The notes: generated from the sequence alone by a model not told the origin. DNA of 64,000 nt from an uncultured Porphyromonadaceae bacterium (GCA_964512915.1 CAZEKJ010000007.1:15572-79571), one strand, 5' to 3'. Positions 9,597 to 64,000 are shown, counted from the stretch's first letter. Made by a program: numbers and translations.

Positions 9597-9643
9597 TTAT
9601 TTCAGGTCTTTTCCATACCTTAGGGCACACAAACCATCAAGCC

Positions 9644-11125: not shown

Positions 11126-11129
11126 CTCC

Positions 11130-17115: not shown

Positions 17116-17149
17116 TTTGTCCTGGGGGACGAGTAAAGATAAGAAAAAA

Positions 17150-23045: not shown

Positions 23046-23055
23046 GCGACAATGG

Positions 23056-29563: not shown

Positions 29564-29615
29564 GTTACTGGTTACTGGTTGCTGGTTACTGGTTACCGGT
29601 TGCCGGTTGCCGGTT
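29564..29615. repeat. Heptamer array (GTTACTG/GTTGCTG/GTTACCG/GTTGCCG)x7.4
   Basis: Fills the spacer between the stop at 29621 and the ATG at 29563, with zero gap to the ATG. Confidence 0.9.
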
Positions 29616-29620
29616 AAAGG

Positions 29621-33160: not shown

Positions 33161-33297
33161 GGCAGAAGGCAGAAGGCAGAAGGCAGAAATTAGTAAGAAG
33201 AAAGAGGTTAGAAGAAAAAAGGATCTTCGGCCCTAACTTCTTTCTTATTTCTTCTTACTTTTTACTAATTTCTGCCTTCTGCCCTCTGCCCTCTGCC
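33161..33297. repeat. GGCAGAA-armed palindromic element, subfamily B
   Basis: Exactly fills the gap between the convergent stops TAG (33158-33160) and TTA (33298-33300). Arms of 4 heptamers plus ATTAGTAAGAAG-type extensions. Confidence 0.9.
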
Positions 33298-35672: not shown

Positions 35673-35866
35673 GTTGCTGGTTGCTGGTTACGGGTATCGG
35701 GTATCGGGTATCGGGAGTCGGTTAAGGGGCTCTCCGTGGAATAGGATTTCCGCTTTCGCAGAAGTGATACCATCGGAGAGCCCTGTTCCCAACAACTGAT
35801 ACCCGATACCCGATACCAAATCGTAAATTGTCAATCGTAATTCCTCCGTCGTCCGTCGTCGGTCGG
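35673..35866. repeat. Composite spacer: heptamer array, GGTATCG-armed palindrome with a 10-bp inner stem and a GAAA-type hairpin, then TCGTAA and CCGTCGT repeats
   Basis: Arms at 35692-35715 and 35796-35817. Inner stem GGGCTCTCCG/CGGAGAGCCC at 35727-35736 and 35774-35783. Hairpin unit at 35745-35768. Confidence 0.85.
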
Positions 35867-39768: not shown

Positions 39769-39830
39769 GGCATAAGGGCACAAGGGCACAGGGGCACAGG
39801 GGCACAGGGGCACAAGGGCACAAGGGCACA
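39768..39830 (+). repeat. (GGGCAYARG)n array, 8 G-tracts
   Basis: Starts at the stop TAG (39766-39768) of the M14 gene. Confidence 0.9.
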
Positions 39831-39884
39831 GTCTTACAGTCTCTCCGTCTCTCCGTCTCTCCGTCTCTCCGTCTCTCCGTCTTC
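39831..39884. repeat. (CCGTCTCT)n octamer array
   Basis: GTCTTACAGTCTCTCCGTCTCTCCGTCTCTCCGTCTCTCCGTCTCTCCGTCTTCC. Abuts the stop (39886-39888) of the minus-strand gene. Confidence 0.9.
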
Positions 39885-40407: not shown

Positions 40408-41703
40408 ATGCGCCTTCCAAGACCTCCGCGATTTATTTTCGTTCCGGTCATCATTATGGCCATGCTGCTGGTTTTACAATTGGCTGGACAGAACCCTGAA
40501 GATCACAGTCGGGATAGCCTAAAAAATTACGAAAAGACCCGCATCGAAGGACGTTCCTATTGGTCAGCTTTCGTCAATACCGGTCCCTATATCAGGAAAT
40601 ATATATCCAAACGGCCCGAAACCAGCCCGGAAATCTCGGAATATTTCAGAAAACAGGAAGAGATTGTTAGCCAGCTAAAGACTGAACATTCCGAGTCCGG
40701 AGAATTAAGCCTGGCCTTTATCGGGGACCTGATGTGGATATGGTATGGCTGGGAGCGATTCCTGTCGCCAGAAGTACTGGCTGAACTGGAACGACACGAC
40801 GTGGTTCTGGCAAACCTGGAAACACCTGTCGATCCGTCGCGGCGTGTTTCTTTCCCCGTTCCCGATCATCCGTCATACAATTCCCCGGTTGAGTTATTGA
40901 CCTCATTCTACAGTAAAACAAAAAGGGTAAATACCCTGACAGCGGTATCTTTTGCCAATAACCACACGTTTGACAGGGGAGAGGATGGCGCACGGGCAAC
41001 ACTCGGCGTACTTGATTCCCTCGGGATCGGACATTCGGGCGTTATCAGGCCGGAAATCCAGAAAAAACCGTACTATCTGATAGAAAAAAATGGCATCCGG
41101 ATCGGATTCTACGCGACTTGCTGGGGAACGAACAAAGGGGAAGTAGGGCACGAGGGCACAGGGGCACATGGGCATGAGGGATTGAGGGTGAATGTGATTC
41201 AGGGACTTGCTCCGTTAAATCAGGACAAAATTGACCTGTCGGAGGTGAAGTCGGTTCTTGGCCAAATGGCTCAGGATTCGCTGGATTTTAAGATAGTCAG
41301 TATCCATTGGGGGTTTGAATTTGAGTTCTATCCCGATCCGGTCATCATGGAGGTTGGACACCAGATCGTGGCTTCTGGCGCAGACCTGATTATCGGTTCT
41401 CATCCGCATGTTCAGCAGCCGAATGAAATCTGTTTTCTCAACGGGTATCGCGGGGATATCGCTCCATTCCTGATTTTAACGCCGGATTCGGTCCCTCGCA
41501 AGGCACTGATTGCCTATTCACTGGGCAACTTTTGTACACCGATGTACACTCGGACTCACCGAACAGGGCAGATTCAGTCACTACGCCTGTATCGACATCC
41601 TGAAACCGGCCGGATCGATTGGACGATACCGGAAGTCAAGAAGATATATAATGAAAATGGCCGGAAATGGCGTACATTTAGAAGGTTAACCCTGGCATCA
41701 TGA
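40408..41703 (+). CDS. CapA/PGA_cap family metallophosphatase-like protein
   Basis: LAFIGDLMW, FANNHTFDRGEDG, VSIHWGFEFEFYPD, GADLIIGSHPHVQQP and AYSLGNF motifs. Contains an in-frame degenerate G-rich repeat. Confidence 0.8.
   Translation: MRLPRPPRFIFVPVIIMAMLLVLQLAGQNPEDHSRDSLKNYEKTRIEGRSYWSAFVNTGPYIRKYISKRPETSPEISEYFRKQEEIVSQLKTEHSESGELSLAFIGDLMWIWYGWERFLSPEVLAELERHDVVLANLETPVDPSRRVSFPVPDHPSYNSPVELLTSFYSKTKRVNTLTAVSFANNHTFDRGEDGARATLGVLDSLGIGHSGVIRPEIQKKPYYLIEKNGIRIGFYATCWGTNKGEVGHEGTGAHGHEGLRVNVIQGLAPLNQDKIDLSEVKSVLGQMAQDSLDFKIVSIHWGFEFEFYPDPVIMEVGHQIVASGADLIIGSHPHVQQPNEICFLNGYRGDIAPFLILTPDSVPRKALIAYSLGNFCTPMYTRTHRTGQIQSLRLYRHPETGRIDWTIPEVKKIYNENGRKWRTFRRLTLAS
41137..41190 (+). repeat. 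Degenerate in-frame G-rich octamer array inside the CapA-like gene
   Basis: GGGGAAGTAGGGCACGAGGGCACAGGGGCACATGGGCATGAGGGATTGAGGGTG encodes GEVGHEGTGAHGHEGLRV. Confidence 0.75.
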
Positions 41704-43476: not shown

Positions 43477-43522
43477 AACCGGCAACCGGCAACCGGTAAC
43501 CAGTAACCAGTAACCAGCAACC
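43477..43522 (+). repeat. (AACCGGC/AACCGGT/AACCAGT/AACCAGC)x6.5 heptamer array flush with an ATG
   Basis: Ends ...AACCAGCAACC, directly followed by the ATG at 43523. Confidence 0.9.
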
Positions 43523-44828: not shown

Positions 44829-45776
44829 ATGAGAACTGTTCTTACATCTCTATTCTGCCTGATCCTGCTCGGATTGACTGGCTGCAGCGGGTCATTTCCA
44901 ACCGACAAGCCCATAGTTGAAGGTTTCATCGATGTAACCGGCGGTAAGGTTTATTACAGGATCGTGGGAGCCGACAAGCCTGGAATCCCCCTTTTGGCTC
45001 TTCACGGCGGCCCCGGAGCCGCACATGATTATCTTGAGCCCCTGGAAGCCCTGGCCGATGAGCGTCCGGTGATCTTTTACGATCAGTTAGGCTGCGGCAG
45101 CTCCGACCGGCCGGGTGACACGACCCTCTGGACCCTCGAACGATTTGTGGATGAGCTGGCAACAATCAGGAAAGAGCTGGGATTAAAAAAGGTGCACATC
45201 ATGGGACAGTCATGGGGCAGCATGCTGGCCGCCGAATATATGGTTACAAAAAAACCCGCCGGAGTTGTGAGCCTGATCTTTTCCGGCCCCTGTCTGAGTG
45301 CGTCACGCTGGATTACCGACCAGCACGCCTGGATCAGCCAGATGCCCGATTCGATGCAGAACGCCATTCGGATTGGCGAGGAAACCGGAAATTTTGCGAC
45401 CCCCGAATACCAGAGTGCGCTCAACTACTTCTATTCCATTCATGTCTGCCGGATGAACCCATGGCCCGATTGCCTGAACCGTTCCCTGGCCAAGATGGGT
45501 GTGGATGTTTATGAGTACATGTGGGGACCCAGCGAATTCACCGCCACCGGAACCCTTAAGAATTTTGACCGCACCGGTGAAATGACCGGAATAAAAGTTC
45601 CAACCCTGTTTACCTGCGGGGAGTTCGACGAGGCGACCCCGGCAACTACCGCCTGGTACCAAAGCCTGCTCCCAGGATCAGAACTAAAAGTATTTCAGGA
45701 CGCCTCGCACGAGCACCATCTGGAAAAAGAATCCGAATATATCGCCGCAGTCAGGGAGTTTATCGGGAAACAATAA
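44829..45776 (+). CDS. Proline iminopeptidase-family hydrolase (S33), lipoprotein
   Basis: LHGGPGAAHDYL and GQSWGSMLA motifs. Signal LILLGLTGCSG. Confidence 0.8.
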   Translation: MRTVLTSLFCLILLGLTGCSGSFPTDKPIVEGFIDVTGGKVYYRIVGADKPGIPLLALHGGPGAAHDYLEPLEALADERPVIFYDQLGCGSSDRPGDTTLWTLERFVDELATIRKELGLKKVHIMGQSWGSMLAAEYMVTKKPAGVVSLIFSGPCLSASRWITDQHAWISQMPDSMQNAIRIGEETGNFATPEYQSALNYFYSIHVCRMNPWPDCLNRSLAKMGVDVYEYMWGPSEFTATGTLKNFDRTGEMTGIKVPTLFTCGEFDEATPATTAWYQSLLPGSELKVFQDASHEHHLEKESEYIAAVREFIGKQ

Positions 45777-47175
45777 TTCCGTATGGCGGAAGATGGATCC
45801 GGATCGATTCCAATCTGCTGTCCGCGGGCTCCGCAAAAAGAACCTCGCCCAGGTAACCATTAACTGAATAGTGCGGCTTCTCGAGTTCCTGCAAAGTTCC
45901 CGTCAGGTTGATGGCAACCCAGATCCAGTTTTTAAAATCGCCCAGAGTCCTGACAAAAGTAATGACCCCAGGATTATCATTCGGAAGTATCCGGACCTCA
46001 CCGTGTGCCAGGGCCGGGTATTGTTTCCGCAAGGAAATCAGCGTTTTATAAAAATTCCAGAGGGAATTCGGATCCTTGATTTGCTCTTCCACGCTAATCC
46101 CGTCGTTTGCCTTGCCATATCGCTTGTCCCACCAGATTCCTGAATTTTTGTACCAGTGGGCCATACCCGGACCTTCTGTGTTCTTGTACCATTCGAAGGC
46201 TTCCCGCCTTGAAATCTGGTCTCCGTCGGTAGGCACCTCATGCTTGATTCCTTTCATCCCGATTTCCTGACCGTAATAGATCAGGGGCGTTCCTTTCAGC
46301 AGCAGGTTAAAGGCCGCACCCACCTTTTCCCTGGCCAGATCCCCGTTCATCAGGGAGGCAAAACGATCCACATCGTGATTCTCAATAAAAATCAGCTGGT
46401 CCTTGCCGGGGGGAGTCATCAGATACGTGGTATCCAGCTTGTTCTGGATCTGGTTCTTGTCGAGGGAATTGATGGCCATGTACAAGGGAAAGGCAAAAAC
46501 AAGATCGAGGTCCGCCTTCTTGAAAATCTCCGTCCCATACTCCATCCAGTTGGCCTGCTCCCCGATAATCCGGATATTTGGATTTATTGCCCGGAGTTCA
46601 TCAAAAAGCGGCTTCCAGAAACCAGCATAAAGATTGGTTAACCTGCCCGTAAAGTCGAGGTCATCCATGATGTGATCGATGCGGAACCCATCCACTCCGT
46701 CGTCGAACTTCCCGTCCTTGTTGGGATCCAGAAAGTAGTGGTAGAGATCATAGAAATATTTTTTTACCTCCGGATGATTCAGGTTGGCCATATTGAGACC
46801 CCGGGAGGTTCCGTCATAGGATATCACCTTTCCCCAGGGTGTTCCAGCCAGCTGATAATCCGGCTTGCTGGCATACCAATCGGAGCCCTCGGTTACATAC
46901 TGGGTCTCCATATCGAGGTAAAACCTCATTCCCCGCTTATGGATCTCCCTGAGCAGTTCCGTGAATTCCTTCATGGTGCCGTATTCCGGATCAATCTTCC
47001 AATAATCCTTGGCGAAATAATTGTGATAGGATTCAGATTCCATCAGCGGCAGCGTGAGAATCGAGGTAACCCCCAGATCCTGCAGGTAATCGAGCTTCTT
47101 TTTCAGTCCGTTAAGATCCCCGATCCGGTCGCCGTTGCTGTCATAAAAGCTTCTCGGCAGCACGTAATAAACCAC
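45760..47175 (-). other. GH13 alpha-amylase-family catalytic module
   Basis: GH13 conserved regions: YYVLPRSFYDSNGDRIGDLNG, DGFRIDHIMD, IIGEQANW and FIENHDVDRF. Confidence 0.85.
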
Positions 47176-50100
47176 CTCAGGAGCCGGTTTCTTTGTCTCC
47201 GGCTCAAACTCAATCATCTGGGTGACATACTTTTCCTTCGATTCCGGGAACCGAAACTCCCGCTCCTCAATGATCCGGTCGCGGATCACCCGGATCTTTC
47301 CCCCGCTGCCGCTCAATCCCTCCACTTTAACCCGATATGTTGCCCCGGCAAGTTCATCGGAAATAATCTTGAAACCGGTGGATGAGTCGCCGGGTGCCGG
47401 ATGATGAACAACAGGCAGTACCCCGATACCACCGCTGTGATTGACGATCACCCGGATCTTATCATAGAGGGGAGCCATAGGAGTAATGCTTTGCCGGAGT
47501 TGTGAGAAATCGCCCGGGATTTTTGCTACAAGTCTTCCGATATCGATGGTACCCCCCTCAATCCGTGTACCGGGAAGCAGCTCAATATCCATTCCTATAT
47601 ATATTCGCGTGGTATCGGCAGCCTGATCTCCGGTTTTACTGCGCACGAAATCCAGCTGAGTCTGGCCGGTTCGCCTCACCTGCGTCATGGAAAAGGAGTG
47701 AACCCCGATCCGGATATTCTCAACGGTCACCGAATCCCAATCCATGGGGAACTCCGGATTCAGGTATACATAATTTTTAATCGCATCGGGTTTGAATCCC
47801 AGCATCCCGTCGATGGCCGGCTGGATCACCATGGTTTCGCTCCAGCACTGATGGCGGCATACCCCGAAATATTTGTATTGGGTGCCATGGAGCACCTCCT
47901 CAATATAGCCCAGCGACCAGTTTTTGTAAATCAGCAGGTTGCTCATCAGTTTAGAGTACCCCTGAGCGGAATTGCCGGCCGCAAAATCTCCGAGGGAAGC
48001 CCAGCCGGTAAAGAGCGGCCACACACTTCCTGTATGGTAACCACCCGGCGCGAAGAATTTCGCCTTTTCACTCACGATCCGGGTTCCCCAGTCGGTGGTG
48101 AAATTGGGTGACGCGATCCTGTCAACCACGGCCCTTTTCTGTTCCTGGCTCCTGATCTGTCCCCAGTGCAGGGGGATGGCCGTCATCACCGAGGGCTCGG
48201 TCATGTAGGTGCCATCCTTGAAAATCCCGTGGTTGAAGAATTTCGTTTCCGGGTTCCAGAATCCGGTGTTCAGTTTATCCAGAACCACTTTCGCCTCATC
48301 GGTATATTTTGTTTGCAGTTCTTTAAGCCCGATATTTTCAGCCATATACGCTGCCTGCCCCAGTGCTTCGGCCCAACAGGAGACCATATACTGCGTGGTA
48401 TGGGTGACATAAAGATCACCGCCCTCTTCCCAGCCGTGTCCCTGCTGGGTGTTCTCGATCAGGTGGTCGCGGTCGGTATCGGTGGAATAACAGAAATCGA
48501 TGGCCTTTTTAATGAATGGCCACTCCTTGCGGATGAAAGCGGTGTCGCCGGAGTGATGTAAGTATTTGCCAGCCAAAACTATATAAAGAGGTGTGGCATC
48601 CGCCGCATCAAAATGTGCGATGCCTGAGGTGGTCAGTTCATGGTAGATTTTTCCTGAAACGTCCTGATACCTGGAAAAAAGCTCCAGGATGGTTTTTACA
48701 CGTTCAAAATCGCCATAATCGAGAACGGCAAACCCGCTCCAGACGGCATCCCGACCGAAATACCACGCGTAGCCTGGACGGCCGTTGACTTTTTGGGCTC
48801 CGTTCCAGCCGTAATCCGTGGTAGCGTATCCCGCAACCAGTGAGCGGCCCACACCGGGGGTATTCACGATAAACCGGTCGCTGCCCACCAGTGCCCACTT
48901 ATAGCCGGTATTGAAATCGGCATCCGGACCGGTGATGGTCAGTTTTCCATTGAAGAGTGATTTTGCATAATCCACAGCTGCAGCATAAACGGCATCCGGC
49001 TTCATCGCCGCCCTGCGGTAGGCTGAAACAGCCTCGGTGACACCGGTAGCCGAGGTCCCCAGCACCACATCGGCCATACTTTCCGGTTCCATGACCGTCT
49101 CCAAGGTTAGTGCCACCCTGAGTCCCTGATCCGGAGATCCGGTTTTAGCCGTAACAGGCACATTCATCCCGATGGTCATGGCGAAATCGCCCGATTTATC
49201 CCTGACAACCCAGGCGTTCAGCACCTCATTCCAGGAGTAGCGGATTTCGCCGGTAACCTTTTCCGAATAGGGCCACATAAACCGGAGGTTGCTTTTCAAG
49301 CTGATTACCAGATCGATCGGCTGGTCCCCGGAATAAGCATAGTGGATCACCGCATTCCCGTCGGTCGGGTGTACGGTGATGATCTCCTTCAGGAGGCTTT
49401 CCCCGAATGCGTAGATCCGGGTAAAAGATTCCGGTCTAACCTCGATGGCCGGTTTCAATGTATTCAGCGCGATTTCCTTATCGGGATTATGCATTCTGAT
49501 TTTAACCTGATAATCGCGCAGAGCCATAACCGGATGCGCCCACACCTCATCGATCCCGCCGGGCTCCTTGCCCAGAATCACCATTCTCTCGCCGGCAATA
49601 TCCCACATGTTCTTAGGCTGGGCCGTGGCCTTGAGGGTGATCTCACTATCATGCTGCACCCAGGGCTCAGGCTTCCCTAACCACAACTTTATACCTGCTT
49701 CTTCTTCCTGATTTCTGCCCTCTGCCCTCTGCCCTCTGCCTTCCTCTTCAGCTACGACAGGCGGTCCATAATCCCAATTCCTCACCTGGCTCACCATCGT
49801 CTGGCCGTCCAGGTAATCCAGCACATTCCGGGTAAATTTTTCCAGATGGGAGCTGTTATAATTGGGCATGTCATAATCCAGATAGGCCCCGATGGCCAAA
49901 ATTTTTCCTTTTCCCAGGGTGTATTCCGTGATCAGTTTATTCTGATCATAGAGGAATATGTATGCCCAGTCAACCGCTACAACCTTTCCGTCGGGAACAG
50001 CCTCTCCGAACCATCCTACTCTCCGTACATTGATGTCCTGTTTTGGCGCATAGACATAGGCCCCGCCAAGCATCCCGTCGAAAATCGGGTGACTGCGGAA

Positions 50101-51630
50101 GGCGTGCAGTCCCAGTTTCCGGCCGTTTCCTTCATCCACCAGTTTCGTATAGGAAACCGTTGGGGCCACCTTCTCCACCCCCAGGTATGGGAGCAATCTG
50201 ACAGCGTCCATGGTCAGCAGCAGGCTGCCGCCCTGCTCAACATGCCTGCGAAACTTCCCGGCCCACTCCGCTGCCTTTTTATCCAGGTCAACGGTTGAAT
50301 CCGGCTCGTGATACCAGAGCACTTTGCCATAGGGGGTTGGGGTCCCCGCTTTCGCGGGGATGACAAGTGCATCTGCACCATCCGGGTTCGCCGGGATGAC
50401 AAGAGCCTGATCTTGAATATCTTGTTTCTTTCTTTCGCCCCCGGGTCGAGCCCGGGGCAGGCTTTTCGCCTTTCGCCTTTCGCCTTGTTTCTCCAGCGCA
50501 ACCCCCTGCTCCCAATTTACGACATACTGCCACCAATTATTCAGATGCCCGTCCTCCGGATTGATCCCTTCGAAATGCGGAATATGGCTGAACCACCAGC
50601 TCATGTACCCTTCGTGTGAACATTGCCACTCGGAACAGTCCACCGTTCGGGTCATATCGGGCTTAATATCAGGATAATAGTTCCATCCATCGGCACATGT
50701 GGTAACCGGCGTTTTGTTCACCCAGTCATAATCAAACATGCCGTTGGGGGGAAAATGGATATTCCCGATGTTCGCCAGTCCGGGGTGTGTTTTGTTGAAG
50801 CGGGTATATTTCTCCCAGTTGTTGGGGACGGGCTCGTTATAATCCCAGCGGCCGTAAAGGTGCCACATCACGGATTCGAAGCGGTGACCGTAGCTTTCGA
50901 GTGCCAGCGACATTTTCCGTTCGTAGTTCAGTCCCATTACCACCAGAAGTTCCTTGTTCGAAGTGGTGGTTGTGGGTTCGGAGTTGAGCCAGAAGCCGGT
51001 GGCGCCGCAATAGTTGGATTCCCACATGCCTCCGTAAGGAAACGACCAGACCCACACCTCATTGATCTGATTTTTATCGCGCATTTTGTCGAAGCCGTAG
51101 TGCTCCACAAACTCCTTGTAATCGAAATGCGTTCCGGTCTCCTTGAGGGTTTTCCAGTCGGGCTCCATCAGCAGGTTGACCATCTCATCGGTGCCGAGCA
51201 TCACATTATTATCGTTCCTCCGGGAGAAGAACTTCCCGTCATCGATGATCTTTACCACCTCATACTGTACCACCCCATGGCTGATCTTTTCCAGGGCGGC
51301 CTCGTACTCCCGGTTCAGCACCATCGGATCGTTCCACATGAAGGTGCGGCCCGGGGTTTTCACCACCTCATGGAGCCGCTTGCCGCCATATTGAGGCAGC
51401 GCCGGATCCTGGATGACGACCGCGACTTTCACCTTGATGGGCTTGGCGGGGGGGAGCTGGGCGAAGGCAGAAGGCAGAGGGCAGAAGGCAGAAATCAGTA
51501 AGAAGAAGGAAGGAAGAAGGAACAGGTTTCTGCCAGCCTGTAGCTTCAGAGCCGGAGCGGAGCTGGGACATAAAACCCCGGGCTGAACCCCGGGGTTACT
51601 GATGTCTGTCGAAGACGATTTTCTAATCAT
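45760..51630 (-). CDS. 1956-codon composite ORF: unknown module A, unknown module B, glycogen-debranching (GDE_C/amylo-alpha-1,6-glucosidase-like) module, GH13 alpha-amylase-family module
   Basis: Uninterrupted frame. Module junctions consist of repeat modules otherwise seen in intergenic DNA. Whether it is one polypeptide is uncertain (see findings). Confidence 0.55.
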   Translation of the reverse strand: MIRKSSSTDISNPGVQPGVLCPSSAPALKLQAGRNLFLLPSFFLLISAFCPLPSAFAQLPPAKPIKVKVAVVIQDPALPQYGGKRLHEVVKTPGRTFMWNDPMVLNREYEAALEKISHGVVQYEVVKIIDDGKFFSRRNDNNVMLGTDEMVNLLMEPDWKTLKETGTHFDYKEFVEHYGFDKMRDKNQINEVWVWSFPYGGMWESNYCGATGFWLNSEPTTTTSNKELLVVMGLNYERKMSLALESYGHRFESVMWHLYGRWDYNEPVPNNWEKYTRFNKTHPGLANIGNIHFPPNGMFDYDWVNKTPVTTCADGWNYYPDIKPDMTRTVDCSEWQCSHEGYMSWWFSHIPHFEGINPEDGHLNNWWQYVVNWEQGVALEKQGERRKAKSLPRARPGGERKKQDIQDQALVIPANPDGADALVIPAKAGTPTPYGKVLWYHEPDSTVDLDKKAAEWAGKFRRHVEQGGSLLLTMDAVRLLPYLGVEKVAPTVSYTKLVDEGNGRKLGLHAFRSHPIFDGMLGGAYVYAPKQDINVRRVGWFGEAVPDGKVVAVDWAYIFLYDQNKLITEYTLGKGKILAIGAYLDYDMPNYNSSHLEKFTRNVLDYLDGQTMVSQVRNWDYGPPVVAEEEGRGQRAEGRNQEEEAGIKLWLGKPEPWVQHDSEITLKATAQPKNMWDIAGERMVILGKEPGGIDEVWAHPVMALRDYQVKIRMHNPDKEIALNTLKPAIEVRPESFTRIYAFGESLLKEIITVHPTDGNAVIHYAYSGDQPIDLVISLKSNLRFMWPYSEKVTGEIRYSWNEVLNAWVVRDKSGDFAMTIGMNVPVTAKTGSPDQGLRVALTLETVMEPESMADVVLGTSATGVTEAVSAYRRAAMKPDAVYAAAVDYAKSLFNGKLTITGPDADFNTGYKWALVGSDRFIVNTPGVGRSLVAGYATTDYGWNGAQKVNGRPGYAWYFGRDAVWSGFAVLDYGDFERVKTILELFSRYQDVSGKIYHELTTSGIAHFDAADATPLYIVLAGKYLHHSGDTAFIRKEWPFIKKAIDFCYSTDTDRDHLIENTQQGHGWEEGGDLYVTHTTQYMVSCWAEALGQAAYMAENIGLKELQTKYTDEAKVVLDKLNTGFWNPETKFFNHGIFKDGTYMTEPSVMTAIPLHWGQIRSQEQKRAVVDRIASPNFTTDWGTRIVSEKAKFFAPGGYHTGSVWPLFTGWASLGDFAAGNSAQGYSKLMSNLLIYKNWSLGYIEEVLHGTQYKYFGVCRHQCWSETMVIQPAIDGMLGFKPDAIKNYVYLNPEFPMDWDSVTVENIRIGVHSFSMTQVRRTGQTQLDFVRSKTGDQAADTTRIYIGMDIELLPGTRIEGGTIDIGRLVAKIPGDFSQLRQSITPMAPLYDKIRVIVNHSGGIGVLPVVHHPAPGDSSTGFKIISDELAGATYRVKVEGLSGSGGKIRVIRDRIIEEREFRFPESKEKYVTQMIEFEPETKKPAPEVVYYVLPRSFYDSNGDRIGDLNGLKKKLDYLQDLGVTSILTLPLMESESYHNYFAKDYWKIDPEYGTMKEFTELLREIHKRGMRFYLDMETQYVTEGSDWYASKPDYQLAGTPWGKVISYDGTSRGLNMANLNHPEVKKYFYDLYHYFLDPNKDGKFDDGVDGFRIDHIMDDLDFTGRLTNLYAGFWKPLFDELRAINPNIRIIGEQANWMEYGTEIFKKADLDLVFAFPLYMAINSLDKNQIQNKLDTTYLMTPPGKDQLIFIENHDVDRFASLMNGDLAREKVGAAFNLLLKGTPLIYYGQEIGMKGIKHEVPTDGDQISRREAFEWYKNTEGPGMAHWYKNSGIWWDKRYGKANDGISVEEQIKDPNSLWNFYKTLISLRKQYPALAHGEVRILPNDNPGVITFVRTLGDFKNWIWVAINLTGTLQELEKPHYSVNGYLGEVLFAEPADSRLESIRIHLPPYGIIVSR
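47176..49692 (-). other. Glycogen debranching enzyme-like (GDE_C) module
   Basis: YFGRDAVWSGFA, ADATPLYIVLAGKY, GHGWEEGG and GGYHTGSVWPLFTGWAS motifs are typical of amylo-alpha-1,6-glucosidase-type (alpha/alpha)6 enzymes. Confidence 0.7.
49698..49740. repeat. Single arm of a subfamily-B GGCAGAA element inside the composite ORF
   Basis: CTTCTTCTTCCTGATTTCTGCCCTCTGCCCTCTGCCCTCTGCC is followed by TTC where intact copies have TTA. No partner arm is present. Confidence 0.85.
49741..50340 (-). other. Module B of the composite ORF (unknown function, about 200 aa)
   Basis: PYGKVLWYHEPDS...NWDYGPPVVAEEE. A GTG lies at its start. Ends exactly where intact repeat copies carry a stop codon. Confidence 0.45.
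50341..50484. repeat. Composite of intergenic-type modules inside the composite ORF
   Basis: On the minus strand: (GGCGAAA)x3, GC hairpin CCCCGGGCTCGACCCGGGG, GAAAGAAAG, then two GTCATCCC...GAAA/GAAC hairpin units (50379-50400 and 50341-50364). Confidence 0.85.
50485..51459 (-). other. Module A of the composite ORF (unknown function, about 325 aa after the repeat-encoded N terminus)
   Basis: Compositionally normal coding sequence, PAKPIKVKVAVVIQDP...NNWWQYVVNWEQGVALEKQ. No family recognised. Confidence 0.5.
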
Positions 51631-51718
51631 TCCAGAGAGTTGTTATAATGAATACCTTATAAGACTTTAAAATTTTCACTTTCCTTTCTGCCTTTCTGCC
51701 CTCTTGCCCTTCTGCCCT
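51460..51718. repeat. GGCAGAA-type element whose left arm is translated as the N terminus of the composite ORF
   Basis: Left arm at 51460-51525 (GGCGAAGGCAGAAGGCAGAGGGCAGAAGGCAGAAATCAGTAAGAAGAAGG). Right arm at 51679-51718 (CTTTCCTTTCTGCCTTTCTGCCCTCTTGCCCTTCTGCCCTA). The ORF ATG at 51630 lies in the core. Confidence 0.7.
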
Positions 51719-54948: not shown

Positions 54949-55695
54949 GTGACATCGCTCAAAGGGCGGCTTCGGTCTCCTGTTTTTTCCTTTATTACGG
55001 TTCCGATATTTGTGGTCCTGTACACTTTTACTGGTGTTACAGCCCTGATTACCTGGCCGTTTGCTTTTTCAAGACAGAAGCGGACAGTACGTAAAATTAT
55101 TCGCTTCTGGTCCTTCTCCATTTTCTTTTTAATGGGCAAGCGATTAAAGGTCAAGGGTATTGAAAATATCGAGCCCGGAAAGAAATATATCCTCCTGGCC
55201 AACCATGCCAGCCTCTTTGACATCACCGCCATCCTGGCCTTTTATCCGGGGATCTCCTGGTTTGGCCGGGAACACCTTTTACGGGTTCCCGTGTTCGGGC
55301 ATATCCTGAAAATGATCGATTATATCCCGATGAGCCGGGCCGATGTTAAAAATACGCGGCGCATGCTGGACCAGCTGGTAAAAAAATCCGAAGGACATTC
55401 CATCGCGATGTTTCCTGAAGGAACACGGACCCCGTCAGGTGAAATCAGCAATTTCCGGAGGGGTTTTATCCACGTAATACGATCCACCGACCTTGAGGTC
55501 CTGCCGGTAACCCTGAACGGATTTCATTCATTAAAGCCAAAAAACAGGTTCTGGATAGATTTCGGATCAAGAATCAACGTAATCATCCATCCGCCCATAC
55601 CCAACGAATCCCTTAAACAACAAACCGATCTGGAGATCGTCCACACAGTCAGGACCATCATCCAATCGGCTTACCAGCAACAACACAAACATTGA
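54949..55695 (+). CDS. 1-acyl-sn-glycerol-3-phosphate acyltransferase (PlsC/LPLAT family)
   Basis: HX4D motif (NHASLFD) and FPEGTRT motif. GTG start. Confidence 0.8.
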   Translation: MTSLKGRLRSPVFSFITVPIFVVLYTFTGVTALITWPFAFSRQKRTVRKIIRFWSFSIFFLMGKRLKVKGIENIEPGKKYILLANHASLFDITAILAFYPGISWFGREHLLRVPVFGHILKMIDYIPMSRADVKNTRRMLDQLVKKSEGHSIAMFPEGTRTPSGEISNFRRGFIHVIRSTDLEVLPVTLNGFHSLKPKNRFWIDFGSRINVIIHPPIPNESLKQQTDLEIVHTVRTIIQSAYQQQHKH

Positions 55696-55697
55696 TT

Positions 55698-56624
55698 ATG
55701 GAACAGCAAAATAAAAAGGAGTGGGCCTTTATTGTTAATCCGATCGCAGGGAACGGATTCGGCCTGAGCTATCTTCCAACCGTGAAGGCCATGATTGAAA
55801 AGTACGGGATTCTTGCAGATGTTGTTCTTACCGAGCGTCATGGTCATGCAACCGAACTCGCACAAGCATTTGCTGATCAAGGATATAAATACATTATCGG
55901 GGTGGGTGGCGACGGTACCCTGAACGAGATTTCCCGCCCGTTGATCAACAACCTGAATGTCACCGTCGGCATTATTCCGGCGGGTACCGGAAACGATTTT
56001 ATCCAGATTCTCGGACTTCCCAACCGGTTCACGGAGCAGGACTGGGATACTTTTTTTAAGTTAAATGTAATATTGATGGATGCCGGTTCGGTGAACGGAA
56101 TGTATTTCATCAACGGCATGGGCCTGGGCTTCGATGCACAGGTTGCTGCTGAAAACTATACGAAACCAGGAGAAACCAAACGCGGAGGAAAAAACAAGTA
56201 TATCTGGCACATTGTGAAAACCCTTCTGTTTTTCAGGGAGAAACATGTGATCATGAAGTCAAACGGGGAAAGAAAGGAAACCAACTGCTTTATCAATACC
56301 ATCGCCAACGGGCGGCGATTTGCCGGAAGCTTTTTCCTTACGCCCAAAGCCATAGCCAACGACGGGCTCCTGGATGTTTGCAGCATCAAGAAGCTCAATC
56401 TTATCGAGCGGTTCCAGCTGTTATTGATGGTTCCGAAAGGCACCCATATCCACGACCACCGGGTAAACTACTACCAAACGGCACATATCAGCCTTGAATT
56501 CACCGAAGAGGTGCCCTTCCATGTCGACGGCGAACTCCATTTTGCAAAGGAATTTGATGTGAAGGTGCTGCCCGGGGCGTTGAGGATGATTTATAACCCG
56601 GGGGGACCGCATTACTTTCAGTGA
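55698..56624 (+). CDS. Diacylglycerol/lipid kinase (YegS/BmrU family)
   Basis: FIVNPIAG and GGDGTLNE motifs. The ATG at 55698 is preferred over the TTG at 55692. Confidence 0.8.
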   Translation: MEQQNKKEWAFIVNPIAGNGFGLSYLPTVKAMIEKYGILADVVLTERHGHATELAQAFADQGYKYIIGVGGDGTLNEISRPLINNLNVTVGIIPAGTGNDFIQILGLPNRFTEQDWDTFFKLNVILMDAGSVNGMYFINGMGLGFDAQVAAENYTKPGETKRGGKNKYIWHIVKTLLFFREKHVIMKSNGERKETNCFINTIANGRRFAGSFFLTPKAIANDGLLDVCSIKKLNLIERFQLLLMVPKGTHIHDHRVNYYQTAHISLEFTEEVPFHVDGELHFAKEFDVKVLPGALRMIYNPGGPHYFQ

Positions 56625-56785
56625 CCAGTTACCGGTTGCCAGTTGCCGGTTGCCGGTTGGGCCAGAACTGTCATTCCGGCGAAAGCCGGAATCCCCTGAC
56701 AAGTGCTCCGGGGCCTGGGATCCTGACTTTCGTCAGGATGACAGTTCCGGCCCAACTGGTAACTGGTAACCGGCAACTGGCAACT
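56625..56785. repeat. Nested palindromic element, same architecture as 15495-15680
   Basis: Heptamer arms at 56625-56663 and 56749-56785. 10-bp stem GAACTGTCAT/ATGACAGTTC. Hairpins at 56670-56693 (GAAA loop) and 56719-56742. The left arm is flush with the stop at 56622-56624; the right arm ends 11 nt from the stop at 56797-56799. Confidence 0.9.
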
Positions 56786-56796: not shown

Positions 56797-58170
56797 TCAG
56801 ATCTCTTCCCCAATACTATACGGCGGCCGGTAATTCCGCGTCAGCATCATATCGGCCTCCGGATCACTGGCAAATTTCTCGTGACTGCCCATGAAGTGAA
56901 CCTCACGGTTGAGCCGGTAGGATATGTTGGCCAGGTGCGGAAGGGCCGACGACATGAAACCCTCCTGAATATCGCAGTTGAGATCTTCATCTTTCCCTGA
57001 CCGGATGGAATCCAGAAAGTTGGCATAATGTTCGGATCCTCCGGGGGCTGCCCGGTACGTGGGATCCACCGGCTTCTCGGCGGCAGGCTTGTCGGACCCG
57101 GCAAACGAGTCTTTCTCCCTTTTCCTCCAGGCTTTCCAGGTGCTCCCGTTGATTTCCAGATACCCTTCCGTGCCGTAAAAAATATTCCCGATCTTGATAT
57201 TCAGGTTCCCTTCGCCGTTGGTATAAGCCCCCCGGGTCTCAAACTCGAAAATCTGGCCGTTGGCATATTTAAAGACTGAAGCCTGGGTATCCGGGGTTTC
57301 CTGGGAGCACTCGCGTTTGGTAAACCCGTATATCCCCCCGCTGGAGTAAATCGCGACAGGATGCTCATTCTGGCCCAGGCCCCATCGGGCTATATCAAAC
57401 TGATGCGGGCCCTGGTTTCCGGTGTCTCCGTTGCCTGTATCCCAGTGCCAGTGCCAGTTGTAATGCACGCGTTTTTCATTGTAGGGACGTAGCTGGGCAG
57501 GCCCGAGCCACCTGTCGTAATGCAGGGTTGCCGGCGGAGTGCTGTCCCTGGCGATCCCGAAAGAATCCCTGGGCTTCAGACAGAGGCCACGGGCCATGTA
57601 AACCTCCCCGATACCGCCCTCCCGCAAAAACCGTAATGCTTCCATTACCTGCGGAATCGACCGGTTCTGGAAACCAACCTGAACCCTTACATTATACTTC
57701 CTGGCGGCTTCCACCATTTTGCGGCCTTCAAAAACATTGTGACAGGCAGGCTTTTCAACATATACATGTTTGCCAGCCTGACAGGCCCAGATCGTTCCCA
57801 GGGCATGCCAGTGGTTTGGTATGGCCATTGAAACCGCATGTATCTCCTTGTCATCGAACACCTTACGCATGTCCCACTCGGTTGCCGGGCGATATCCGGT
57901 CAGTTTTTCAGCATTATCCGCCCGCTCCTTAAAAAACTGCTCATCCGCATCGCACAGGGTTTTAATCCTGACATTCCGGTCGTCCTTCAGGCTGGCATAG
58001 GTGTTGATATGCCCTCCACCCTGGCCCCGTATACCGATGATGGCCAAATTGATCCGTTCATTTGATCCGATAATTGATCCATAGGATTTGGCAGAAAAAC
58101 CCATGCCTCCGATGGCAATGCCTGCGGTTCCCACCAGGCTCTTTTTGATAAAATCTCTTCGTTCGGTCAT
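56797..58170 (-). CDS. TAT-exported Gfo/Idh/MocA family oxidoreductase
   Basis: Twin-arginine signal MTERRDFIKKSLVGTAGIA. Rossmann motif LAIIGIRGQGGGH. Confidence 0.8.
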   Translation of the reverse strand: MTERRDFIKKSLVGTAGIAIGGMGFSAKSYGSIIGSNERINLAIIGIRGQGGGHINTYASLKDDRNVRIKTLCDADEQFFKERADNAEKLTGYRPATEWDMRKVFDDKEIHAVSMAIPNHWHALGTIWACQAGKHVYVEKPACHNVFEGRKMVEAARKYNVRVQVGFQNRSIPQVMEALRFLREGGIGEVYMARGLCLKPRDSFGIARDSTPPATLHYDRWLGPAQLRPYNEKRVHYNWHWHWDTGNGDTGNQGPHQFDIARWGLGQNEHPVAIYSSGGIYGFTKRECSQETPDTQASVFKYANGQIFEFETRGAYTNGEGNLNIKIGNIFYGTEGYLEINGSTWKAWRKREKDSFAGSDKPAAEKPVDPTYRAAPGGSEHYANFLDSIRSGKDEDLNCDIQEGFMSSALPHLANISYRLNREVHFMGSHEKFASDPEADMMLTRNYRPPYSIGEEI

Positions 58171-58262
58171 AGTAGTTGGTTGCTGGTTACTGGTTGCTGG
58201 TTCTGGTTGCCGGTTGCCGGTTACCGGTTACCGGTTACTGGTCACTGGTCACTGGTCACTGG
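58171..58262. repeat. 12-unit heptamer array drifting from GTTGCTG to GTCACTG
   Basis: Fills the spacer between the stop at 58256-58258 (inside the last unit) and the ATG at 58170. Confidence 0.9.
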
Positions 58263-59128
58263 TTTTTCCATTGGTCGTTTAGGGTTAGGAATGCGCGCGG
58301 CAGGTCTTCGTTTTTCCAGGAGCCCTCAATGGAGATGCCTCCGTGATAGCGTATTTTCTTCAAGGCCTCAAAGTAAGGACGAAAGTCATCTCCATCCATT
58401 CCGGGCGCTGTGCGGGTTCTGAGTTCGGCAATATGGCAATGAACCAGAAGATCACCGGCATCCAAAATGGAGGAGGGCCCTTCATTTTCCCGCATCATGT
58501 GAAAAATGTCTGCTAAAACTCTGATATTCTTATCGTTAACTTCTCTTGCGATCGAAGTGGCCTCGGTTACGGTATTGATAAAATTGCATTCCGATTTTTG
58601 CAGGCTTTCTATGGCGATGGTCACATGGTATTTCCGCGCAACCGGACCCATTCTTTTCAGCAGGCTTACAAATTGGTTCCGGGCTTCTGACCGGTCGAAC
58701 TCTTCGGGGATCGAACGGGCTCCCGAACTGCCAAATACGATGATCCGGATCCCGGCCTGTTCCGCCCTCCGGAAGGCCACCTCTGCATAGCTCAGAACCG
58801 TATCGTGCCTGGCTTCCGGTCCGGTTACCTTAAGTGTTCCCGGAAGGAATCCGTTGCAGGCAATTACCGGCAGCTTGCAGGTATCAAATTCGGCCATTTT
58901 CTTCTGGAACTCTTCATCAGGTTTTCCGGGCATCAGGTCGCGTCCCACACTCCCTTCCAGGTACCGGAAGCCCGCTTGTTTCAGTATAGATGCGTTTGAC
59001 AGGGAGGTGCAAACGCCGAACTGTGGACCCTGCTCTCGTGCCGATGCTCCGATCCTTGTGGCCGGTTTGCATGCGGGTAACCCGATAAGAACGGCAGCTA
59101 TCAGGATAAGAAGAGGCCTGTTTTTCAT
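58256..59128 (-). CDS. Sugar phosphate isomerase/epimerase (xylose isomerase-like TIM barrel), lipoprotein
   Basis: 290 aa. AP_endonuc_2-like pattern (IRIIVFGS..., ESLQKSECNFIN, HCHIAE). The stop lies in the heptamer array. Confidence 0.7.
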   Translation of the reverse strand: MKNRPLLILIAAVLIGLPACKPATRIGASAREQGPQFGVCTSLSNASILKQAGFRYLEGSVGRDLMPGKPDEEFQKKMAEFDTCKLPVIACNGFLPGTLKVTGPEARHDTVLSYAEVAFRRAEQAGIRIIVFGSSGARSIPEEFDRSEARNQFVSLLKRMGPVARKYHVTIAIESLQKSECNFINTVTEATSIAREVNDKNIRVLADIFHMMRENEGPSSILDAGDLLVHCHIAELRTRTAPGMDGDDFRPYFEALKKIRYHGGISIEGSWKNEDLPRAFLTLNDQWKNQ

Positions 59129-60550: not shown

Positions 60551-60587
60551 GACTGGTCACTGGTCACTGGTCACTAGTCACTACTCC
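60551..60587. repeat. (GTCACTG-family) heptamer array overlapping a gene 3' end
   Basis: GACTGGTCACTGGTCACTGGTCACTAGTCACTACTCC. The TAG stop (60574-60576) and the last 3 codons of the SGNH hydrolase lie in it. Confidence 0.85.
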
Positions 60588-61278: not shown

Positions 61279-63150
61279 ATGAAAACCATTATTTTCCTAT
61301 CTGCCCTGGCGCTTTTTTGCTCCTGCAACCAGACTCCAACCACCACGATTTTCGTTGGTTCAGAGGGTAACGATCTTAACACAGGTTCAAAAAATGAGTC
61401 CCTTCGAACACTTGAAGCAGCTCAGAAGCTTGTTCGTGAAATGCGGGAAAAAGAACCCGGAAAATCCGTAAAAGTTATCCTCGGAGCAGGTACCTGGCAT
61501 ATTGATAAGCCTCTGTTTTTTGGTTCTTCTGACGGGGGATCCGGAAAGGCAACCGTTACCTGGGAAGGCCAGCCCGATGGCGGGACCGTGATTTCCGGCG
61601 GTACGCTGATCGGCGGTTTCAGGGATGAAGGGTATGGGATCTGGTGGGCGCCGGTCGACAGCACCAGAGTTTTTGAACAGCTCTATGTTAATGGAGTCCG
61701 CGCTACCCGAGCCCGTTACCCGAATATGGATGATCCCAAGCCGAGAATCTACCTGGATCATTCCTCCTGGATTTACAATCAGGACTCGACGGTAAAAAAT
61801 ATTAAAGTCACGCTGCGCGACAGCACCCTGACGGATCGTCTTTTTCTTGGAAATACCTGCGAGGTGGTCGTCTTCAAGGACTGGACGATATCCCGGTTTC
61901 ATGTTTCCGGCTTTATATCTGAACCGCCCGCCCTGCTGCTAAAGCCGCCGTTTGCACTGTTTGACGGACCCTACAATTCGATTTTTGCCGGAAATTCAAA
62001 CCGGTACAGCTGCTATCTCGAAGGGGATCCCACCTTCGTGGACCAACCGGGCGAATGGGCGCTCGATAGGGCTGGCAGCCGGGTGTTTTACAAACCGCTG
62101 CCTGGACAGACCCTTGAGAGTGTTACGGTGATTGCGCCCATGGCACAGCAGCTCGTGGTTATGAAAGGAGACGCGGAAAGTCCAATTACGAATTTAGAGT
62201 TCCGAAGTATAAGGTTTGAAAATGCCGCATACCTGTTGCCGGAATATAATCACGATGGGATGCAGGCTGCTTTTTATTATCCGGGAAATTCGGAAAAAAC
62301 GACTGGCCCGGGTCTGATTCCTCCAGCCATCGAGATGGCATGGGCGGAAAATTGCAAGGTTTCGGACTGTACCCTGCGAAACATTGGCGGGAATGGCATT
62401 TACCTTCGTGAGGGGTGTCGGAATAACCGGATAAAAAATAGTATTGCCGAAGATATCGGAGGGAACGGGGTCATGATCGGGCTCACGTTTGACCCGAAAG
62501 CGGACTCGCCACTCCTGCCTGTCAACAACGTGGTCACCGGATCCACCATCCATAATTGCGGGGTCGGGTTTCACGGCTCGGTCGGGATTTGGCTCGGCTT
62601 CTGCGCGGAAAATGAAATATCGGACTGTGAGGTATATGACCTTCCGTACACCGGCATTTCGGTGGGCTGGCAGTGGAATCCGCAACCCACCTCCTCGAAA
62701 AACAACCGCATCCTGAATAACCGTATTCATCACGCCATGCAGATGCTTGGCGACGGTGGCGGAATTTATACCCTCGGATTCCAGCCGGGTTCCGTCATAT
62801 CAGGAAATGAAATTCACGATATCCTGAGGAGCGAACTGAACCATGCCTCAGACAATAACGGGATGTTTATCGATGAAGGCAGCAAGGGGTACCTGATTGA
62901 GAACAACACCATACGAAACACGGCACATACCAGCATCCGCGGCCACCGGGCTGCCGGAGTAGAGCTTATCGGAAACACCTTTTATTCCGGCGAACAGGCT
63001 GCCATCAGCCACACCCCGCCTTACGAAGCCATGATCTTCGTGAACAAAGACACCACAGTGTCCTGGAAAAACCCCGGATGGCCAGTGGAGTGGGGGTATC
63101 CGGAGAAGATTACGGCGTTTACGATGAAAGGGAATACCTTTAAGAAATAA
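61279..63150 (+). CDS. Right-handed parallel beta-helix repeat lipoprotein (pectate-lyase-fold)
   Basis: Signal LSALALFCSCNQ. Repeated NxxIxNxGGNGI-type turns (NIGGNGIYL, DIGGNGVMI, GDGGGIYT). Confidence 0.7.
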   Translation: MKTIIFLSALALFCSCNQTPTTTIFVGSEGNDLNTGSKNESLRTLEAAQKLVREMREKEPGKSVKVILGAGTWHIDKPLFFGSSDGGSGKATVTWEGQPDGGTVISGGTLIGGFRDEGYGIWWAPVDSTRVFEQLYVNGVRATRARYPNMDDPKPRIYLDHSSWIYNQDSTVKNIKVTLRDSTLTDRLFLGNTCEVVVFKDWTISRFHVSGFISEPPALLLKPPFALFDGPYNSIFAGNSNRYSCYLEGDPTFVDQPGEWALDRAGSRVFYKPLPGQTLESVTVIAPMAQQLVVMKGDAESPITNLEFRSIRFENAAYLLPEYNHDGMQAAFYYPGNSEKTTGPGLIPPAIEMAWAENCKVSDCTLRNIGGNGIYLREGCRNNRIKNSIAEDIGGNGVMIGLTFDPKADSPLLPVNNVVTGSTIHNCGVGFHGSVGIWLGFCAENEISDCEVYDLPYTGISVGWQWNPQPTSSKNNRILNNRIHHAMQMLGDGGGIYTLGFQPGSVISGNEIHDILRSELNHASDNNGMFIDEGSKGYLIENNTIRNTAHTSIRGHRAAGVELIGNTFYSGEQAAISHTPPYEAMIFVNKDTTVSWKNPGWPVEWGYPEKITAFTMKGNTFKK

Positions 63151-63290
63151 GGCAGAAGGCAGAAGGCAAAAATTAGACTTAAGTCCTTAATCCTTAAGTA
63201 AAAAGTTAAGTATGAAGGAGGGCACAAAGCCAACCTTTTTACTTTTCTATCTTATTTCTTTTTACTAATTTCTGCCTTCTGCCTTCTGCC
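63151..63290. repeat. GGCAGAA-armed palindromic element, subfamily A
   Basis: Exactly fills the gap between the convergent stops TAA (63148-63150) and CTA (63291-63293). Confidence 0.9.
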
Positions 63291-64000
63291 CTATTTCTTA
63301 ATAATAATCGCTTCCCCGAACCCCAGCGCCTTCAACTGCACCGCCTGCGTAGCAGCGTCTCCCGCAATTACATAGAACATCCGGGTTGGATCGATATATT
63401 TCTGAGCCAAAGCCTTGTGCTGATCCACCGTCATGTTCCGGATGGTCTCCTGCTCGCCCTTAACGTAATCAACCGGCAGGTTGTACATGCTGATATCAGC
63501 AAGCATGCCGGTTAGCGCACCCAGGGTTTCAAAGTTCTGTGCGTAGGATTTGATCAGGTAGCTTTGGGTCTTGGCCAGTTCTTCCTCCGGAATGCCGTTT
63601 CGGTAGTTCTCCATCAGGCTTTTAAAAATCTGCAGAGACTCAAGCGTTGCCGAGGATCGTACCATCGAAGAAGCGGTGAAAGGGCCGGGGATATAGGTTC
63701 CGCTGAAGGACGTGCTGGCTCCGTAGGTAAATCCCTTCTGCTCCCGGAGAACCTGATTCACGAGCGAGAGGAAGTTTCCGCCAAGATGGTCATTCATCAC
63801 AGTAGCCGCAAAGTAGTCGGGGTCGGATTGGGCAAGAGCCAGGCTTCCTATTCGGATCACCGACTGCTTGGCACCGGGGACATCGACCACTATAATCTCC
63901 GATTTCTGAAGCGGTTCCGGAACGGGATAAACCGGAAATACCAACTCTTTGGCCGGCCATTTCGAAACCAGACCATTGAGTGATTTAACAACTTTTTCTT
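63291..64000 (-). CDS. M16 (pitrilysin/insulinase) family peptidase, C-terminal part (5' end outside window)
   Basis: Frame open to the window edge. The pattern GAKQSVIRIGSLA...DPDYFAATVMNDHLGGNFLSLVNQVLREQKGFTYGA is typical of the M16 C-terminal domain. Confidence 0.75.
   Translation of the reverse strand, partial: EKVVKSLNGLVSKWPAKELVFPVYPVPEPLQKSEIIVVDVPGAKQSVIRIGSLALAQSDPDYFAATVMNDHLGGNFLSLVNQVLREQKGFTYGASTSFSGTYIPGPFTASSMVRSSATLESLQIFKSLMENYRNGIPEEELAKTQSYLIKSYAQNFETLGALTGMLADISMYNLPVDYVKGEQETIRNMTVDQHKALAQKYIDPTRMFYVIAGDAATQAVQLKALGFGEAIIIKK

Follow-up and report, generated by a model that had tools for sequence, protein, structure and literature searches.

Among described repeats, the closest to those reported here are dRS3 and the family to which it belongs. 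Chenal et al. (Nat Commun 2025; PMC11893778) describe an oriented 28-nt hairpin, NTS (CGTCATTCCCGCGMAVGCGGGAATCYRG), with dRS3 (ATTCCC-N8-GGGAAT) as its core, and NTS-like Ssn-related motifs (SRM), with the pattern HGTCWYN(0-2)YYVSBRHN(0-5)WNVSBRGN(0-2)RNCYNB, that are found across phyla, Sphingomonas and Rickettsia being listed as SRM-rich. SRMs are spatially associated with the single-domain GIY-YIG gene ssnA (94 aa, cd10448); an SRM lies nearby in 71% of ssnA homologues and on both sides in 42%. Binding and cutting of the motif by SsnA occur in single-stranded DNA only, with the three bases upstream of the palindrome most important for cutting and the C just after the palindrome most important for binding (PMC11893778).

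In a 64,000-nt stretch of a groundwater Bacteroidota genome (the window), we observed SRM units arranged as heads-outward doublets between inverted CCGGTTG arrays. The unit family itself was already known (Chenal et al. 2025); the heptamer-armed, heterotypic, flip-prone composite in Bacteroidota is new. Judged by their sequence, the GTCAT-stem-GAAA hairpins of the window belong to the NTS/dRS3/SRM family of REP-like repeats described in 2025. They share with it the GTCAT head, the ATTCC...GGAAT palindrome, a GAAA-type loop and a C directly after the palindrome; they form hairpins and are probably present in many copies per genome, and small GIY-YIG genes of other genomes have the same units on either side. 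However, no ssn gene was seen in the window or in the contigs of close relatives, stem types A, B, C and D coexist here in one element with type B lying outside the strict pattern, and the units are nested between inverted heptamer arrays, which do not figure in the description given by the main text of PMC11893778. The host lineage, known from metagenome-assembled genomes (MAGs), also belongs to a phylum that this main text does not mention. A repeat family with a recently assigned function (Ssn/NTS) is thereby extended to an uncultured Bacteroidota lineage and to a new architecture.

The elements also resemble the NIMEs of Neisseria and the BIMEs or REPINs of E. coli. All are intergenic mosaics of oriented palindromic units in alternating orientation, their doublets fold as one long hairpin, and their modules are gained, lost and shuffled rapidly between relatives. 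By contrast, the outer arms here are tandem heptamer arrays, where those systems have further REPs. RAYT-linked BIMEs and REPINs differ additionally in head motif and in enzyme class, which is Y1 HUH transposase there and GIY-YIG here.

The initial annotation had ascribed one plan to two nested palindromes, at 15495-15680 and 56625-56785: heptamer arm, TGTCAT, hairpin, variable middle, inverted hairpin, ATGACA and inverted heptamer arm. Exactly this plan was present in both. The composite at 56625-56785 (the 56.6 kb element) lies between two convergent genes and occupies nearly all of the sequence that separates their stop codons; the genes are a DAGK/YegS-like kinase gene on the plus strand (55692-56624) and a GFO/IDH/MocA oxidoreductase gene on the minus strand (56797-58170), the best relatives of the latter being from Bacteroidales and Bacteroidota MAGs. 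The left arm (56625-56659, plus) begins directly after the kinase stop codon and consists of five CCRGTTR heptamers (CCAGTTA CCGGTTG CCAGTTG CCGGTTG CCGGTTG). It is followed by the inner arm GGCCAGAAC-T (56660-56669, plus), which pairs with 56743-56752; the junction CCAGAACT|GTCAT is common to most lineage copies of the composite. Hairpin unit A, GTCATTCCGGCGAAAGCCGGAATC (56670-56693, plus), has an 8-bp stem and a GAAA loop, matched the published SRM pattern and scored 47.5 bits in a covariance model. The doublet middle, CCCTGACAAGTGCTCCGGGGCCTGG (56694-56718, 25 nt), carries on its minus strand a recurrent CYCGGAGCR link motif. Hairpin unit B (56719-56742, minus) is inverted (GATCCTGACTTTCGTCAGGATGAC; minus-strand reading GTCATCCTGACGAAAGTCAGGATC) and scored 43.4 bits; its stem type is plentiful in Sphingomonas. 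The second inner arm, A-GTTCCGGCC, is followed by the right array (56753-56785), which reads CAACTGG TAACTGG TAACCGG CAACTGG CAACT; together they span 56743-56785 (plus), and the right arm stops 11 nt short of the oxidoreductase stop codon.

The composite at 15495-15680 (the 15.5 kb element) follows the same plan and sits between two minus-strand genes. On the minus strand, its left heptamer arm (15495-15528, plus) forms a forward YAACYGG array, which lies 33 nt upstream of the start codon at 15462. Hairpin unit A', GTCATTCCGGTGAAAACCGGAATC (15541-15564, plus), has a T-A inner pair in place of C-G, matched the SRM pattern and scored 42.8 bits. A variable middle of 44 nt (15565-15608), rich in GTGTGA hexamer repeats, separates it from hairpin unit B' (15609-15633, minus; GTCATCCTGACGGAAGTCAGAAATC in minus-strand reading), which has a GGAA loop and an imperfect outer stem and scored 31.9 bits. 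The inner arm GTTCGGGCGAAA and the right arm (15635-15680, plus) end the element with TAACCGG TAACCGG CAACCGG TAACCGG CAACTG.

Across the window, the covariance model, which was built from lineage units, recovered six strong units of 32-47 bits, at 15540(+), 15607(-), 18868(+), 50338(-), 56669(+) and 56716(-). The scores were strand-specific, reaching 43-47 bits on the forward strand and 10-13 bits on the reverse strand of the same sites. A loose unit pattern matched 4 times in the window when 0.08 matches were expected, and the published SRM pattern gave 4 matches compared with 0.32 in shuffles. The SRM pattern was matched at 15540-15567(+), 50339-50365(-) and 56669-56696(+). The strict pattern did not match the B-type units (56719-42 and 15609-33) or the unit at 18869; the failure of the B-type stem, ATCCTGAC, counts against the SRM reading. 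Besides the composites, the strong units comprise a solitary perfect unit, GTCATCCCGGCGGAAGCCGGGATC (18869-18892, plus, 47.1 bits), in frame within a GH95 gene and read as GIPASAGMT, and unit C, GTCATCCCCGCGAAAGCGGGGAC (50341-50364, minus, 45.1 bits), in frame within a 1956-aa ORF (VIPAKAG). The seven units listed in the initial annotation were thus recovered in part: five are strong, but 50379-50400 (GTCATCCCGGCGAACCCGGATG, minus) is degenerate, scored a weak 10 bits and lies within a 36-nt in-frame segment missing from a relative (L121), 35745-35768 (minus) is also degenerate, and the perfect unit at 18869-18892 had been left out. The unit at 35745-35768 (GTATCAC-TTCTGC-GAAA-GCGGAA), with a GTATCAC head and one G.T pair, was not found by the covariance model; it is the one degenerate unit contained in a palindrome of the same plan with GGTATCG arms (35693-35817). 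Unit density was six strong units per 64 kb in the window, and dozens of units were present in 47 composite-bearing metagenome loci.

Identical or closely similar units were found well beyond this lineage. One locus from a scan of viral contigs (L008) held arrays of GTCATTCCCACGAAAGTGGGAATC and CGTCATTCCCGCGCAGGCGGGAATCCAG, the latter an exact match to the Neisseria NTS consensus. When 185,579 species genomes were scanned with the B-type stem, matches fell mostly in Sphingomonas, and the stem also occurred in Maricaulis, Pragia, Oceanisphaera, Bacteroidales and other Bacteroidota MAGs, Ignavibacteriaceae, Patescibacteria and Fibrobacter. Elsewhere, ORFs running through units yielded WIPAFAGMT and SFPRKRESS. 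The link made in the initial annotation between VIPAKAG-type peptides and small palindromic repeats in other phyla holds at the DNA level, with units in NTS-consensus loci and in several phyla. A BLAST search of a 32-nt unit against plasmids returned only five weak matches, and a literature search for VIPAKAGI, FRGNDG and similar peptides found no paper. Rfam gave no match at gathering score in the window; the sub-threshold matches were mostly to miRNA hairpin models, lay on both strands and were discarded as generic.

Stem pairing was analysed in the lineage units, taken as all 28-mers starting TGTCATYC in lineage sequences. The number of stem pairs per 28-mer was bimodal, with 6-8 in real units and 0-3 in the background. 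The resulting alignment of 41 distinct units (stem in columns 5-12 and 17-24) had clear non-units taken out by eye, a step that favours pairing. In this alignment the TGTCAT head was invariant and the C after the stem was at least 90% conserved, so that, at the level of sequence, the positions critical for SsnA (GTC head and C tail) are invariant or nearly so in the lineage. Stem cells paired in register in 92.4% of cases, compared with at most 50% when the partner was slid. Five of the eight stem pairs showed change on both sides, and double-changed cells numbered 41, compared with 12.3 +/- 2.5 in shuffles (0/500). G.U cells were found in 2 of 328, a near-absence of wobble pairs that fits DNA pairing better than RNA pairing; these pairs were too few for their asymmetry to separate the two. 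An independent check, free of the by-eye selection, came from viral contigs scanned with only the outer stem and loop fixed: the inner triplet was perfectly complementary in 156 of 175 units (chance 1/64), and nine different Watson-Crick triplet types were present. The selection on hairpin structure that the initial annotation had argued for is thus borne out by compensatory stem change both in the 41 lineage units, where double changes exceeded those in shuffles, and in 175 units from unrelated contigs. Several stem variants of one motif therefore coexist in one genome, with pairing kept through compensatory change. The oligonucleotide d(GCGAAAGC) forms an unusually stable DNA mini-hairpin, and the C-GAAA-G closure is kept in every stem type here. 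Whole composites were predicted to fold into a long stem with two side hairpins, the 56.6 kb element at -110 kcal/mol as RNA (z = -11.2) and -58.7 kcal/mol as DNA (z = -10.3), and the 15.5 kb element at -96.7 kcal/mol as RNA (z = -12.4).

A 68-kb groundwater contig (L121), from a sister species, is syntenic with the window from 47.5 to 64 kb at about 87-91% nucleotide identity. The oxidoreductase and kinase genes are 172 nt apart in the window and 165 nt apart in L121, which again has a composite there; more distant relatives have shorter spacers, of 55 nt for L122 (81% amino-acid identity) and of 13-15 nt for L289-L291 (77% identity). No heptamer arrays or units were found in the short spacers of L122 and L289-L291, indicating that, on this sequence comparison, the composite as a whole is an insertion specific to this lineage. 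The 75-nt core from TGTCAT to ATGACA was identical to that of L121 at 75 of 75 positions when flipped, but only 66% identical when aligned collinearly, while the arms of the L121 composite matched the window arms by position at 80-85%. Since the coding DNA next to the core is 90-95% identical between the two, zero changes in 75 nt would be unexpected for neutral sequence, and we read the core as constrained and apparently inverted in place between its inverted arms. The exact 26-nt middle of this core occurred only at orthologous loci, and the core was rejected as a high-copy mobile unit on that ground. At the orthologue of the 15.5 kb element (L256/L265, about 85% identity), the composite has kept its right half (unit B' and arm), and a C-C' doublet and link stand in place of the left half. 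The substitution-free core flip and the half-replaced core at an orthologous site offer two natural experiments on repeat evolution.

A metagenome scan for a CCGGTTG array followed by GTCATYC retrieved 47 loci, about 30 of them from this lineage. In these roughly 30 loci, modules A, B, C and D and the recurrent CYCGGAGCR link were shuffled in many combinations. 'Bacteroidetes bacterium GWF2_49_14' (L166) carried one composite with a separate canonical terminator immediately beside it. The same plan and heptamer, with a different SRM-like hairpin, were found at three loci of unrelated organisms of 64-68% GC (L242, L266 and L283); the Bacteroidota lineage of the window has 51-52% GC. Because the scan pattern demanded both array and unit, it establishes that the plan exists elsewhere and does not measure its frequency. 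It is conceivable, although we consider it rather doubtful, that (CCGGTTG)n - SRM doublet - (CAACCGG)n is a composite mobile element with the heptamer arrays as its ends and a flippable core, moving between phyla. Were the arrays the ends of a mobile element, the composites would represent a class of non-autonomous element not described before, which might not depend on Ssn.

A link between such units and a nuclease gene was evident in other genomes. Small GIY-YIG ORFs of 86-117 aa were present in eight places among loci fetched through the hairpin pattern alone, and the three members tested matched PF01541. With six members, GIY-YIG was the most recurrent small ORF cluster beside units, tied with a cluster of 410-aa viral-contig ORFs. 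Units lay within 60 nt of the GIY-YIG gene in six of the eight places, typically with heads outward on both sides, as in L077, L189 (Sphingomonas) and L171 (a Bacteroidetes MAG with B-type units). Neither a regular expression nor tblastn found a GIY-YIG gene in the window, L121, L122, L166 or the 47 composite-bearing loci (L241-L287). The nuclease link for this genome is therefore one that we infer: it presumably encodes an Ssn homologue, and this nuclease would recognise or spread its copies. To our knowledge, no transposition mechanism has been described for SRMs, those of Neisseria included. Adjacent unit pairs were heads-outward in 100 cases versus 8 in the genome set and in 20 versus 3 in the composite set. 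The window doublets share the SRM-ssn-SRM geometry, with a short middle replacing the gene, and may accordingly be read as its non-autonomous derivatives. Sphingomonas (L123-L240) carried near-perfect heads-outward doublets of B type about 36-41 nt apart (e.g., L123 1459-1539 and L132 3605-3685), at many loci per genome, a clean REPIN-like population and a potential model for the SRM family.

We propose that each unit would act as a strand-oriented DNA hairpin with a GTC head, an 8-bp stem ATYCNNNN (starting ATYCC in types A, C and D and ATCCT in type B), a C-GAAA-G closure and a C tail. Once the DNA is single-stranded, a small single-domain GIY-YIG nuclease (Ssn) would bind such units and cut at them. 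The units would build up in genomes as heads-outward inverted doublets, matching the IS-like SRM-ssn-SRM arrangement, and in this Bacteroidota lineage the doublets would have become embedded between inverted CCGGTTG-type heptamer arrays. The outcome would be intergenic mosaics resembling the NIMEs of Neisseria and the BIMEs of E. coli, inserted downstream of genes, with cores inverted, swapped and duplicated much faster than mutated. If the transcribed hairpin also served as a 3' structure in RNA, this would be incidental. We regard this DNA-level, Ssn-type reading of the units as probable, with moderate confidence. The initial annotation had left the choice between RNA and single-stranded DNA open; the published activity of the family is on single-stranded DNA (PMC11893778), and units in frame inside genes are typical of selfish DNA repeats and not of RNA elements.

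The composites might instead work mainly as RNA. After transcription, the long three-way hairpin would terminate the flanking mRNAs in both directions or protect their 3' ends, as REP/BIME do in E. coli, and the stems would covary because of RNA structure. All eight composites with readable context adjoined at least one gene 3' end and none lay between divergent starts, the predicted RNA folds are extreme (the z-scores given above), and the GAAA loops resemble GNRA tetraloops, all as this explanation would have it. On the minus strand UGUUUUU follows the 15.5 kb element, the only one of the two with a short T-run after its outer stem; no T-run follows the 56.6 kb element, and a terminator scan found no intrinsic terminator site at either composite. 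Mismatches in the arms, as read from the sequence, are mostly G.T on the plus strand in the 56.6 kb element, which would suit an RNA, but are A.C on the transcribed strand in the 15.5 kb element. The composite in L166 has its own canonical terminator beside it, relatives manage with a spacer of 13-55 nt, units occur in both orientations and inside ORFs, and G.U pairs are nearly absent from unit stems. Together with the activity on single-stranded DNA demonstrated for the family (PMC11893778), these points make a primarily RNA-level function unlikely, though it retains the greatest plausibility among the alternatives.

Spread of a classical REP/REPIN by a RAYT, or use of the units as landing sites for an IS110-type recombinase, as dRS3 serves Neisseria phage, appeared very unlikely. 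The REP consensus head is GTAG or GTGG, whereas the head here is GTCAT. The doublet geometry is indeed that of a REPIN or BIME. Chenal et al. stress the parallel with REP/BIME and IS200/IS605 and recall dRS3 as the target of a phage recombinase (PMC11893778). Nevertheless, no recurrent ORF cluster beside units was transposase-like by sequence, the family-library scan having been limited to GIY-YIG members, and no insertion sequence interrupted any unit seen.

The inversion of the core at 75/75 identity between two genomes, with the arms in place and nearby coding DNA at 90-95%, could also suggest a site-specific invertible switch, with a recombinase inverting the 75-nt core of the 56.6 kb element so as to alter expression. 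However, the element lies between two convergent stop codons, leaving nothing downstream to switch. The core contains no promoter-like site; the promoter scan gave two promoter-like matches, both outside the element and inside the oxidoreductase gene. No recombinase gene was present among the neighbours, and only one orientation was seen per genome, L121 and L285 agreeing. Recombination or template switching between the 45-nt inverted arms would explain the flip without a dedicated enzyme, and we consider a switch highly improbable. Although the genome fills many spacers with several kinds of 7- and 8-mer arrays, the idea that heptamer slippage produced the palindromes as a neutral side effect and that the hairpins are palindromic by chance deserves practically no credence and was rejected, being refuted by unit counts far above shuffles, by covarying stems with an invariant or nearly invariant head and tail, by the inner triplets of the viral-contig units and by identical units in other phyla.

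Units inside genes bear on the Ssn-type reading as well, and SRM-type units are apparently tolerated within real genes in this genome. The 1956-aa ORF (45760-51630, minus) reads through 50341-50486 as '...KQGERRKAKSLPRARPGGERKKQDIQDQALVIPANPDGADALVIPAKAGTP...', a segment that contains two hairpin units, a CCCGGG-CTCGA-CCCGGG palindrome and three GGCGAAA heptamers. L121 keeps this frame open, the 36-nt and 24-nt indels by which it differs both being divisible by three. The peptides reported in the initial annotation were read correctly: the unit at 50343 gives LVIPAKAGTP in the long ORF, and reverse frame 3 gives PRFRGDDK. The GH95 gene (17281-19623, minus) contains the perfect unit 18869-18892 in a conserved enzyme domain; this segment showed no length change relative to solved (PDB) homologues, and the unit was rejected as an insertion for that reason. 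Because frames remain open through the in-gene units, VIPAKAG-type peptides are probably truly translated in this genome. Recurrent 'hypothetical protein' peptides (VIPAKAGIQ, SFPRKRESS, RFRGNDx and WIPAFAGMT) are explained as repeat read-through, which should aid annotation clean-up. Rickettsia palindromic elements of about 100-150 nt are likewise said, in work of Ogata and colleagues from 2000, to be inserted in frame in genes. The present units (18869 in GH95; 50341-50400 in the 1956-aa ORF) resemble them as palindromic repeats tolerated in coding genes and so translated, but the Rickettsia elements are longer, and the GH95 unit brings no length change with respect to solved homologues. As a separate observation, 50341-50486 forms an in-frame linker between an unannotated N-terminal part of about 400 aa and the remaining ~1500 aa, with glycoside-hydrolase domain matches starting at about residue 950; the ORF may be a gene fusion across a former intergenic spacer.

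The heptamer of the arms also occurred apart from hairpin units. YAACYRG-type arrays (CAACCGG, TAACCAG and TAACTGG) were found at 29564-29616, 43477-43522 and 58177-58264, and also at 60552-60582. The first three are forward and end at, or a few bases from, start codons (ATG at 29563(-), 43523(+) and 58170(-)). The 57-nt spacer 29564-29620 is almost wholly heptamer array; its orthologues in L288-L290 are about 14-18 nt long and hold no array. Comparable heptamer-type intergenic repeats are known in cyanobacteria as STRR repeats. TAACTGA heptamer direct repeats have been described in intergenic regions of Beggiatoaceae, Cyanobacteria and five Bacteroidetes, upstream of start codons (MacGregor 2015; PMC4679880). 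Similarly, related heptamer arrays (TAACTGG, CAACCGG and TAACCAG) fill spacers here, several of them end at start codons, and their distribution across relatives is patchy. However, the heptamer of the window is one or two bases off TAACTGA, and here two arrays face each other as a palindrome around SRM hairpins.

Several further repeats were observed in the window. A second nested-palindrome family, with AAGGCAG / CTGCCTT arms and an A/T-rich inner stem (AAATTAGTAAGAAG...) and without GTCAT units, lies in spacers beside gene ends at 9425-9601, 17139-17284, 33158-33300, 63128-63313 and ~51463-51718; a half copy (49699-49742) is inside the 1956-aa ORF. Octamer arrays (GGGCACAA)n, often followed by (GTCTCTCA)n, occupy spacers at 11084-11222, 12629-12712, 13930-13995, 39767-39882 and 41145-41174, and a related 8-mer array (ATTATCAC / ATTGGCAC) is at 7958-8016. 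Arrays of 22-23-nt repeats (GCCTGTTAGCCGAGCGCAGCGA-like), partly inverted, lie on both sides of the ORF 2031-2912(-), at 1829-2029 and 3034-3108. Finally, the GC content of 20000-24000 was 0.42-0.47, compared with about 0.52 elsewhere in the window, and this segment may be foreign or differently constrained.
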